Virus genome (UHGV): UHGV-0112814
DNA length: 39,031 nt
DNA from: a virus
Strand: one strand, 5' to 3'
Positions within the stretch are counted from its first letter, which is position 1; the number at the start of each line of letters is the position of its first letter. The notes under the pieces are model-generated. The model was given only the letters and a program-made list of their open reading frames with translations, did no database searches and was not told the DNA's origin. Shown piece by piece: positions 1 to 39,031 of this stretch. Position numbers and translations under genes: made by a program.

Positions 1-40
1 CATGGTTCGCGTCAGATCGTTGACAGCCGCACTCCATGAC

Positions 41-85
41 GGGTAAAAAGTGGATAAAATAATTTTACCCACCGGATTTTTACCC
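41..85 (+). repeat. Cluster of GGGTAAAA-type motifs (two direct at 41..49 and 52..60, two inverted ttttaccc at 63..70 and 78..85) directly upstream of the int start codon
   Basis: Same motif family as at the other window end; typical of integrase arm-type binding sites. Confidence 0.5.
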
Positions 86-1467
86 ATGCTCACCGTTAAG
101 CAGATTGAAGCAGCAAAGCCGAAAGAAAAACCATACCGCCTTCTCGATGGTAATGGCCTGTACCTTTATGTCCCTGTATCAGGGAAAAAGGTATGGCAGC
201 TTCGCTACAAGATTGACGGTAAGGAGAAAATCCTGACCGTAGGAAAATATCCGCTAATGACTTTGCAGGAAGCAAGAGATAAAGCATGGACCGCGAGGAA
301 AGACATCTCGGTTGGCATCGATCCGGTAAAAGCGAAAAAGGCTTCGTCTAACAACAATTCCTTTAGTGCCATTTACAAGGAATGGTACGAGCACAAGAAG
401 CAAGTCTGGTCAGTAGGCTATGCAACTGAACTTGCCAAAATGTTTGATGACGACATTTTACCCATCATCGGCGGTCTTGAGATTCAGGATATTGAGCCGA
501 TGCAACTGCTGGAAGTAATCCGCAGATTTGAAGATCGCGGTGCAATGGAGCGAGCAAATAAAGCCCGCAGAAGATGCGGCGAGGTTTTCCGTTACGCTAT
601 TGTCACCGGCAGGGCTAAATATAACCCGGCACCTGACCTTGCAGACGCCATGAAAGGATACCGCAAGAAGAACTTCCCGTTTCTTCCTGCAGACCAGATC
701 CCGGCATTCAACAAAGCACTGGCAACATTTTCAGGAAGTATCGTATCGCTCATTGCGACCAAAGTTTTACGCTACACAGCCCTAAGAACGAAAGAGCTTC
801 GCTCCATGCAATGGAAGAACGTCGATTTTGAAAACAGGATTATCACCATCGACGCCAGTGTGATGAAGGGACGCAAAATTCATGTGGTTCCTATGTCAGA
901 CCGTTTCTTCCTGCAGACCAGATCCCGGCATTCAACAAAGCACTGGCAACATTTTCAGGAAGTATCGTATCGCTCATTGCGACCAAAGTTTTACGCTACA
1001 CAGCCCTAAGAACGAAAGAGCTTCGCTCCATGCAATGGAAGAACGTCGATTTTGAAAACAGGATTATCACCATCGACGCCAGTGTGATGAAGGGACGCAA
1101 AATTCATGTGGTTCCTATGTCAGACCAGGTGGTTGAACTTCTCACTACGCTAAGCTCAATCACCAAACCAGTATCAGAGTTTGTTTTTGCCGGGCGCAAC
1201 GATAAGAAGAAGCCAATCTGCGAGAACGCGGTACTGCTTGTGATCAAACAAATCGGCTATGAGGGTCTGGAAAGCGGTCACGGATTCAGGCATGAATTCA
1301 GCACGATTATGAACGAGCACGAATGGCCTGCTGATGCTATTGAAGTGCAACTGGCACATGCCAACGGCGGATCTGTGCGCGGGATTTACAACCATGCTCA
1401 GTATCTCGATAAGCGCAGAGAAATGATGCAGTGGTGGGCGGACTGGCTTGATGGGAAGGCGGGCTAA
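86..1467 (+). pseudogene. int: P4/IntS-type tyrosine integrase, reading frame broken by an internal 224-bp tandem duplication (N-terminal fragment ends at stop 1007-1009; C-terminal fragment resumes as ORF 1030..1467)
   Basis: ORF 50..1009 and ORF 1030..1467 share the peptide MQWKNVDFENRIITIDASVMKGRKIHVVPMSD; the second ORF continues into a tyrosine-recombinase C-terminus (HGFRHEF ... GIYNHAQY). ATG at 86 (MLTVKQIEAAKP) preferred over the track start at 50. 224 is not a multiple of 3, so the frame shifts. Confidence 0.85.
677..1124 (+). repeat. Perfect direct tandem duplication, 2 x 224 bp (copy 1 677..900, copy 2 901..1124), with 2-bp CC microhomology at the junction
   Basis: The string ccgtttcttcctgcagaccagatcccggc ... 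gttcctatgtcaga occurs twice back to back, identical by eye. Confidence 0.9.
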
Positions 1468-27670: not shown

Positions 27671-28531
27671 TCACCTGTCGAAAAACACGTAGCCAGTTTT
27701 CGATACGGTGATTGCGGATGATGGTTTGGATTGTGGTTGAATAGTTTCTGGCTTCTCGTCGTTCCAGCGCTGACCGTTCAGGTAGCTCGATGGTAACAAC
27801 CTGTCGAATCCGAACTGCTTACCATTCCTGCATGCGATGTCTTCTGCCAGCATCGTGGCAAACTCGCTTGCCGTACCCCTGGTAGTTTTACGCCATTCCC
27901 TGAACTGTGTTCTGAATGCCGAAGCTGCGTTTTTCTTCCCGGCTTTCCGCATGCCTGCACACCAGAATATTTCCTCGAATGCCTTGTCGGTTTCTTCGTG
28001 ACGGTCAGGTGATTTTTCACACTCCGTCCGAACACTTTCGGACATAGTGTTTTTATTATTTCTTTTTTCTTTTGTAATAGTTTCTTTTGTGTGTCCCTGT
28101 TTTGGTGACAGCGCTGTCACCGTTTTGGTGACACTTTTTGTCACCAATGCAGTGACATTATCACCAGAGTAGTGACACCCTTCGATTTGCCATTCTTCGA
28201 TGTTCTTGTTAGGCCCGATTTGCTGGCCTTCGCGAAGGATAACCTTCATCGCGATAAGCTCATTCTTGGCCTTGTTTACCTTCTGTCTTGGCAGCCTGGT
28301 AATTTGAGCTAACTGACTATCAGAAATGCGATCCATCTTTTTACCGTAGCCGTATGTTTTACGGCATATGGCGTGGGCAACCTTGCTCTGATTTTTCGTT
28401 AAATCTGCGCCGATAAGCTCTTCATACAGGGCATTTGCAAGACGGGTATAACCATCTTCAACTTCTGCCACACGACGCTCCACAGGCCGTTGTGAAGGCC
28501 TTAAATGTGTTACGGTTGCAAGATTACTCAT
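27671..28531 (-). CDS. Replication initiator with lambda O-like N-terminal domain
   Basis: N-terminal [37 protein letters not shown] resembles the phage O N-terminal domain; ori iterons lie inside the gene. Confidence 0.75.
28100..28180. repeat. Candidate replication origin iterons (GTGACA/TGTCAC core repeated about 6 times in both orientations) next to an AT-rich stretch at 28050..28095
   Basis: tttggtgacag / ctgtcaccg / ttttggtgacac / tttttgtcacc / agtgacatt / agtgacaccc inside the O-like gene, as lambda ori lies inside O. Confidence 0.55.
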
Positions 28532-38455: not shown

Positions 38456-38555
38456 CCTGCAACTTGCCGTCAAAGGTGAATAACAATCCTCGCACTCGCG
38501 GGGATTTCTTTTATCTGAACTCGCTACGGCGAGTTTTGCTTTATGGAGATGATAA

Positions 38556-38723
38556 ATGCACTTCCGAGTCACAGGTGAATGGAATGGAGAACCATTCAAC
38601 AGAGTTATCGAAGCAGAGGACATCAACGACTGCTATGACCACTGGATGATATGGGCGCAGATAGCACATGCAGACGTAACCAATATTCGAATTGAAGAAC
38701 TGAAAGAACACCAAGCCGCCTGA
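38556..38723 (+). CDS. Small hypothetical protein (55 aa) ending inside a terminator hairpin
   Basis: Own translation MHFRVTGEWNGEPFNRVIEAEDINDCYDHWMIWAQIAHADVTNIRIEELKEHQAA. Confidence 0.3.
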   Translation: MHFRVTGEWNGEPFNRVIEAEDINDCYDHWMIWAQIAHADVTNIRIEELKEHQAA

Positions 38724-38737
38724 TGGCGGTTTTTTAT
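38714..38737 (+). terminator. Intrinsic terminator upstream of xis
   Basis: agccgcc-tgat-ggcggtt stem (one G.U pair) followed by ttttttatt. Confidence 0.55.
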
Positions 38738-38780
38738 TGCCTGATTTGCAGGTTCGATTCCCTATTCGGAGATAGCACTC

Positions 38781-38981
38781 ATGCAACACGAACTACAACC
38801 TGATTCACTGGTTGATTTGAAATTCATCATGGCTGATACTGGCTTCGGTAAGACCTTCATCTATGACCGGATTAAGTCCGGCGACCTGCCTAAAGCCAAA
38901 GTTATCCACGGACGAGCAAGATGGTTATATCGTGACCATTGTGAATTCAAAAATAAGCTCTTAAGCCGCGCCAATGGGTAA
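38781..38981 (+). CDS. xis: AlpA-family excisionase / DNA-binding protein
   Basis: 66 aa; TGFGKTFIYDRIKSGDLPKAKVIHGRARWLYRD fits the AlpA/Xis HTH pattern; last gene before the int end of the element. Confidence 0.6.
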   Translation: MQHELQPDSLVDLKFIMADTGFGKTFIYDRIKSGDLPKAKVIHGRARWLYRDHCEFKNKLLSRANG

Positions 38982-38998
38982 AATAGCGGGTAAAATAT
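38977..38998 (+). repeat. Two direct GGGTAAAATA repeats with 12-bp period, immediately after xis (candidate Int arm-type sites)
   Basis: gggtaaaatagc-gggtaaaatatt; the first overlaps the xis stop codon. Confidence 0.5.
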
Positions 38999-39031
38999 TT
39001 TTCACATCTAAAAAACACCATTCCAATCAAT

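Follow-up and report, generated by a model that had tools for sequence, protein, structure and literature searches.

The two direct copies of GGGTAAAATA that lie across and just beyond the 3' end of the xis gene in the virus genome UHGV-0112814 are, with a probability of roughly 0.9 as judged from sequence comparison, P-arm arm-type sites for the N-terminal domain of an IntS-type integrase. The repeats almost certainly form part of the argW-targeting recombination module that is common to KplE1, HK620, Sf6, CUS-3 and Kapi1, and the element appears to carry the standard version of this integration module. Both the repeats and the module are already known, having been studied since 2001-2010, and add nothing new to the understanding of site-specific recombination. 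The assignment of the two copies as P1/P2 draws on the identity of their motif with the published P' sites, the annotation of HK620, the covariation of the motif with the integrase in diverged phages and the two studies in which attR was reportedly footprinted, Panis et al. 2007 (J Biol Chem 282:21798) and Panis et al. 2010 (Virology 404:41). Binding of IntS to TAAA-type P' sites and of TorI to GTTCG-type attL sites has been shown by others (PMC2951348), and we infer that IntS physically occupies the two particular copies beside xis. The window denotes the whole stretch of 39,031 nucleotides that was analysed, in which the following features are relevant to this assignment:

38781..38981, plus strand: xis, recombination directionality factor (TorI/HkaC/Sf6 gp18), 66 codons
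38976..38985, plus strand: putative P-arm arm-type integrase site, copy 1 (GGGTAAAATA), overlapping xis codon 66 and the TAA stop
38988..38997, plus strand: putative P-arm arm-type integrase site, copy 2 (GGGTAAAATA), 12 bp past copy 1 and assigned on the same basis
39008..39031, plus strand: A-tract and first 7 bases (AATCAAT, 39025-39031) of the predicted, candidate IHF site AATCAATCCCCTG, cut by the window end
5..19, plus strand: TorI (Xis) sites I4 (GTTCG, 5-9) and I5 (GATCG, 15-19), adjoining the -35 of the int promoter and matching the published motifs
20..49, plus strand: int promoter (PintS / Sf6 pX), -35 TTGACA at 20-25 and -10 at ~43-49, the latter overlapping the first P' arm site
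41..85, mixed strands: P'-arm cluster of four arm-type sites reaching the int ATG (86); HK620 attP repeats 1207-1232 and 1232-1253; identical in K-12 attL
41-50, plus strand: P' arm site GGGTAAAAAG, same motif as the xis-side repeat
52-61, plus strand: P' arm site GGATAAAATA, same motif as the xis-side repeat
61-70, minus strand: P' arm site GGGTAAAATT, same motif as the xis-side repeat
76-85, minus strand: P' arm site GGGTAAAAAT, same motif as the xis-side repeat
86..1467, plus strand: int, IntS-type tyrosine integrase, in two ORFs split by a 224-bp tandem duplication
454..463, minus strand: seventh motif copy GGGTAAAATG, isolated inside int and equivalent to the HK620 annotated 'attP' repeat 829-839

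The repeat pair beside xis and the cluster before int

The xis product is identical in 66/66 residues to K-12 TorI, the recombination directionality factor (RDF) of the KplE1/CPS-53 prophage, matches PDB 1Z4H ('Tor inhibition protein') over its full length and has 100 % matches in HK620, Sf6, N7, Kapi1 and others, so that a TorI/HkaC-type RDF is encoded beside the P arm. At the opposite end of the window, the int DNA is ~97 % identical to intS of HK620, Sf6 and E. coli. The first of its two fragments contains the Pfam domains Arm-DNA-bind_3 (PF13356; residues 2-86; E = 1.2e-25), Phage_int_M and part of Phage_integrase, with the remainder of the catalytic domain found in the second.

The whole window contains exactly two perfect copies of GGGTAAAATA in direct orientation, the first spanning 38976-38985 and the second 38988-38997, and their starts lie 12 bp apart. 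A sequence-only reading of the window had described a 12-bp-period direct repeat at the xis end, and the pair is indeed exact over 38976-38997, while the start that it gave, 38977, is one base late. The xis ORF ends in ...AAT GGG TAA, and copy 1 starts at 38976 on the leading G of the final sense codon (GGG = Gly66), with the TAA stop (38979-38981) lying inside the copy; the repeat thus begins in the Gly66 codon and not, as had been proposed, within the stop codon. Neither does the array run on into the last 50 bp, as it consists of just two copies and its last base is 38997. Over its terminal 56 bases, the window has the sequence GGGTAAAATA-GC-GGGTAAAATA-TTTTTCACATCTAAAAAACACCATTCCAATCAAT, the part beyond the array (38998-39031) comprising a T-rich/A-rich spacer and half an IHF-like site. 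A third, inverted copy at 38996-39007 (10/12 complementary) is treated as a chance match, being unconserved in the Erwinia phages and polymorphic in close relatives. A role of the repeats as the xis terminator was also considered and rejected, as no terminator-like hairpin was found 3' of xis, the sole ones being located upstream (38517-38536 and 38713-38732).

The motif cluster that the same reading had placed at 41..85 is real and consists of four copies, two per strand, directly 5' of int. The window has the arm-type layout of the module: a direct pair lies at the xis stop, and the int promoter is separated from the int ATG by two direct and two inverted copies. All six contain TAAA and are identical to the K-12 and HK620 sites. 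This tetranucleotide is common to all the IntS arm-type P' sites (PMC2951348). The 8-mer GGGTAAAA is found in seven copies in the window against 0.84 expected, a number that was reached in 0/100 shuffles, and five of the seven fall in 41-85 and 38976-38995, that is, in the 45-bp and 22-bp patches by int and xis, respectively. The isolated copy at 454-463 inside int may be due to chance.

According to Panis et al. 2010 (PMC2951348), who studied attL, P'1 overlaps the -10 of the intS promoter, the P' sites mediate autorepression of int, and intS is repressed by both IntS and TorI. The same study places five TorI sites in attL (GTTCG/GATCG/GTCCG), arranged in two blocks, of which the I3-I5 block is nearest to the -35. 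Those seen in the window are I4 and I5 beside TTGACA, in a region that equals K-12 attL save for one base in the I4-I5 spacer, while I1-I3 fall in 114 bp that lie outside the window. The 'prophage excision' promoter of HK620 (1224-1273) and Sf6 pX are the annotated counterparts of the int promoter, the -35/-10 pair of which was not called in a simple consensus promoter scan because of its non-canonical -10.

Correspondence with the attachment modules of KplE1, HK620, Sf6 and lambda

Both ends of the window are 97-98 % identical to the P22-like (Lederbergvirus) phages N7, Kapi1, HK620, Sf6, CUS-3 and IME10. No database record spans the whole window, and the best covers ~63 % of its first 24 kb, which shows the genome to be a mosaic. 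The attP repeat regions annotated in HK620 (AF335538) comprise 1441-1463 (TGGGTAAAATAGCGGGTAAAATA), which are the same 23 bases as those beside xis in the window, as well as 1207-1232, 1232-1253 and the intragenic 829-839. Its attP core is annotated at 1368-1383, between the two repeat groups, and that of Sf6 (AF547987) is at the equivalent spot. A comparison with the attP of Sf6-like phages had been suggested as a check on the repeats, and it bears out their placement, given that the HK620 and Sf6 cores are flanked by arms in the same place and that the same bases are annotated as attP repeats in HK620. Related phages with attP mapped elsewhere and no such repeats at that location were also sought, and none was found.

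The order xis-attP-int in the circular phage, which the sequence-only reading had proposed, is the published arrangement: attP lies between int and xis in Sf6, HK620 and KplE1, placing the two genes at opposite ends of the prophage (PMC8787464, the Kapi1 paper). Its labelling of the xis side as P arm and attR is likewise correct, since the attL sites are those named P' (PMC2951348). In the KplE1 module, a 16-nt core forms the border and is conserved in HK620, Sf6 and CUS-3 (PMC2951348). The attR substrate that recombines in vitro was made with the primer CTCTTAAGCCGCGCCAATGG, named attR-IHF2 (PMC3509656). This primer is identical to window positions 38959-38978, and the published substrate consequently starts 17 bp 5' of the repeats, which places them inside a functional attR.

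One of the closest counterparts is the attR/attP of K-12 KplE1 (CPS-53), with which the window shares an identical TorI and the location of int and xis at opposite prophage ends. The identical 22-mer repeat block is found in the KplE1 attR right after torI (K-12 positions 2476505-2476526), and the identical four-copy P' cluster in attL right before intS; the -35 and the I4/I5 pentamers are also identical, the repeat-to-core distance in K-12 is the same, and a single spacer base distinguishes the final 56 bases of the window from K-12 attR. KplE1 is, however, a defective remnant of 10 kb, while the window represents a full-length P22-like genome, which differs further in lacking the core together with 98 bp of flanking arm DNA and in having an int with a 224-bp tandem duplication. 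The attP repeats lie on the same bases as in HK620 and Sf6 (and also in CUS-3, Kapi1, N7 and IME10), with the shared order xis-attP-int. The window is distinguished from HK620 and Sf6 by single-base polymorphisms in the spacer (TATTTTTCAC in the window versus TATTTCTCAC in both phages) and by the mosaic remainder of its genome.

Similarities to the lambda attP (P1, P2 and P'1-P'3, read by the Int N-terminal domain) include a heterobivalent tyrosine integrase with one arm-site consensus on both arms, bending by IHF and an RDF bound to one arm. The consensus, number, spacing and orientation of the sites nevertheless differ from those of lambda, the int-proximal arm (attL) carries the RDF sites, and attP lies between xis and int rather than 3' of int. 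In further contrast to lambda, the module has a P4/IntS-type integrase with a PF13356 arm domain, and the int promoter is embedded in the arm, resulting in autorepression (PMC2951348).

Conservation of the repeats and alternative explanations

The interval from xis to int was compared in five diverged relatives, which are listed here with the identity of their xis protein to that of the window:

Klebsiella phage Chronis: 86 %
Erwinia phage Midgardsormr38: 88 %
Erwinia phage EhrS49: 82 %
Salmonella phage Emek: 53 %
Erwinia phage phiEt88: 39 %

All five share one layout, in which xis is followed by two direct repeats with a 12-bp period, a spacer, a tRNA-Arg-like core, 2 + 3 RDF-type sites, TTGACA, and two direct and two inverted repeats extending to the int ATG. 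No indels were observed between the first P-arm repeat and the -35 in the seven-sequence alignment. Chronis, Midgardsormr38 and EhrS49 retain the motif as G(G/A)GTAAA, with two copies after xis and four before int. In the remaining two phages GGGTAAA is replaced by GGGCATA/GGGCAC on both arms, at 5/6 positions in Emek and 6/6 in phiEt88, and the integrases of these two phages have lineage-specific substitutions in common in their N-terminal arm-binding domains. A single protein domain that recognises both arms would be expected to lead to such a concerted change. One consensus thus occurs on both arms, as in a lambda-type attP (GGGTAAA in five phages), and co-varies with the integrase; the concerted switch is perhaps a single evolutionary event and may count as one or two independent observations rather than six. 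It represents a tidy illustration, across genera, of the co-evolution of arm site and integrase, albeit an expected one. Among related IMG/VR loci the 22-mer is exact in 41/43, with the other two differing by one base, while the spacer between the 22-mer and the core is polymorphic. In neither Emek nor phiEt88 do the repeats touch the xis stop, and this speaks for an incidental overlap of the repeat with the stop in the window.

Two other functions have to be weighed against that of integrase arm sites. The repeats could be Xis/TorI sites beside xis, bending the P arm in excision in the manner of lambda X1/X2. Lambda X1-X2 are short direct-repeat Xis sites, and the repeats in the window are likewise short and direct, are located directly 3' of xis and lie about one helical turn apart. 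TorI is, moreover, a winged-helix DNA binder (PMC3509656). Its published motif is GTTCG/GATCG/GTCCG, however, and its five characterised sites are on attL, on the int side (PMC2951348, PMC3509656). The corresponding pentamers can be seen in the window at positions 5-9 and 15-19, and further ones in the 114 bp that it lacks. GGGTAAA is instead common to the P' sites that have been defined as IntS arm-type (PMC2951348). The two classes of motif also change independently of each other in Emek and phiEt88 and are on that account separate: in Emek the arm motif has switched while the RDF-type sites are still GTTC(G/T)-like, and in phiEt88 both have changed, to different sequences (the RDF-type sites being GTAAC/GTTAC-like). 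Binding by Xis is consequently very improbable, and the repeats were rejected as Xis sites because the published TorI motif and the location of its sites differ. Fainter still is the prospect that the repeats form the 5' end of a small gene (HK620 hkaB / Sf6 gene 17, MGKIAGKIF...), the ATG of which overlaps the xis stop and the ORF of which crosses attP, with the repeat reflecting a repeated GK(I/V) peptide. This ORF is annotated in HK620, Sf6, Midgardsormr38 (ORF36) and Emek (orf47), and the frame is open for 46-58 codons in 5/7 phages, but EhrS49 has a stop at codon 22, while phiEt88 lacks a start codon and has a stop at codon 13. Substitutions are spread evenly, numbering 55/44/49 at the three codon positions, or 31/29/29 when the close set is taken alone, and do not favour the third position. 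The same motif furthermore occurs on both strands 5' of int, outside the ORF, which would be intact only in the circular phage and destroyed in every lysogen. The small ORF, which extends from 38974 onward across the attP core, was rejected as coding on account of the frame broken in two relatives and the lack of codon-position bias, and is probably a spurious annotation.

The repeat could, finally, have arisen in AT-rich intergenic DNA by chance or by slippage and be devoid of function. Of 300 dinucleotide-preserving shuffles of the window, 86 (29 %) contained one or more exact 10-mers that recur within 10-20 nt, and the control count of close repeats revealed another exact 10-mer direct repeat in the window itself (TTTCTTTTGT, 28066-28090; copies at 28066/28081, spacing 15 bp). 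Taken singly, the repeat pair is weak evidence and statistically not unusual. Its significance derives from the enrichment of the motif, the conservation of the 22-mer and the retention of position and period in diverged phages. The clustering of the motif at the int end, the invariance of the repeat in 41/43 loci with variable flanks, the position and period kept across genera together with the concerted switch of the motif, and the location of the repeat within an attR substrate that recombines experimentally (PMC3509656) all speak against a chance origin, which was rejected only once enrichment, conservation and covariation had been added and is the least probable of the three alternatives.

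As integrase arm sites, the two copies would take part in a recombination cycle in which the circular phage has the order xis, two direct arm sites, IHF-bent spacer, 16-bp core, five TorI sites, int promoter, four arm sites and int. Integration would split attP at the core, so that attR receives the repeats beside xis and attL the cluster beside int. Int would dock with its N-terminal domain on an arm repeat while its catalytic domain engages the core ~80 bp away, and in excision the IHF bend together with TorI on the other arm would give rise to an excisive intasome and strand exchange. The int-side copies, which overlap the int promoter, would at the same time allow autorepression by the integrase. 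The spacer DNA is probably bent by IHF at the candidate site AATCAATCCCCTG, which is a 12/13 match to WATCAANNNNTTR at HK620 1401-1413, although the IHF-site scan overall was not above chance (6 matches versus 3.2 expected). One functional IHF site on attR is said to have been described by Panis et al. (Virology, 2010). There is, in addition, an outside chance that IntS on the P-arm repeats and the four P' copies acts as a putative roadblock or loop on a read-through int transcript. This feedback reading arises because, in the circular phage, transcription from the annotated cII-dependent 'integration' promoter 5' of xis can arrive at int only after crossing xis and all of attP, and because the first arm site overlaps the xis stop; if it is true, the repeats gain a regulatory role in integration beyond intasome assembly.

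Window edges, the missing core and flanking features

The core, CTGCAGGGGACACCAT, is 16 bp in length and corresponds to the 3' end of tRNA-Arg argW. No match to it was found in the window with up to three mismatches allowed, and no tRNA gene was predicted in the window by ARAGORN. In N7, Sf6 and HK620, 114 bp separate the bases that match window positions 39031 and 1. In HK620, Sf6 and K-12 these comprise 23 bp of the P arm, the 16-bp core and 75 bp of the P' arm, the last containing three TorI sites. In HK620, Sf6, N7 and K-12 the first base of the core is located 24 bp past the window end, and the core ends 75 bp ahead of the window start. The window starts 49 bp 5' of its first ORF (GTG at 50) and ends 50 bp 3' of the xis stop, and many IMG/VR proviruses of the same family are likewise cut precisely at the xis stop. 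We infer that gene calls, rather than att junctions, determined where the window was cut. The absence of the core is best explained by this cut and does not in itself point to another att site. Joining the window end to its start, which had been put forward as a means of reconstructing the circular junction, does not rebuild attP, as the 114 bp including the core are missing; it generates a false junction because the edges are those of gene calls. Caution is thus required with window edges that are annotation-defined rather than recombination-defined. The real att boundaries are fixed by the comparison (23 bp plus the core past the end of the window, and 75 bp ahead of its start), which helps to annotate the prophage correctly. 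In IMG/VR relatives (L004-L083) the sequences that follow the core, ~80 bp past the xis stop, differ and include GATACCC..., TGAACAC..., TCCCGCTG... and TTTAAAG..., as well as the phage attP continuation TTATCAGTTCG; this indicates that the host context on the right-hand side varies or that elements lie in tandem at argW.

The tandem duplication in int is perfect over 224 bp (677-900 = 901-1124). As 224 is not a multiple of three, int is frameshifted into an N-terminal ORF of 307/319 amino acids and a C-terminal ORF of 145 amino acids. The top-scoring matches among E. coli complete genomes do not have the duplication (~1273 bp spanned of the 1500-bp query), and its junction has no exact match in IMG/VR or the GTDB representative genomes. 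The duplication may be a real inactivating mutation, resulting in a locked-in prophage, or an assembly artefact.

Two further features flank the module. An exact 16-mer, TTGCAGGTTCGATTCC, is located at 38746-38761, 20 bp 5' of the xis ATG, and is identical to the T-arm of tRNA-Arg argW, which lies directly 5' of the att core and overlaps it by one base. The 16-mer is kept in K-12 KplE1, HK620 and Sf6, and its position is annotated in HK620 as the integration promoter activated by cII (TTGC-N6-TTGC). The 16-mer may be what is left of a longer tRNA duplication of older date, or may coincide with the cII box by chance. Just 3' of int, an ORF of 349 amino acids (1755-2804) encodes a membrane acyltransferase-like protein at the place of the Sf6 oac O-antigen acetylase. 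The window resembles Sf6 in having an O-antigen acetylase-like gene at this position, and the ORF suggests a serotype-converting phage.
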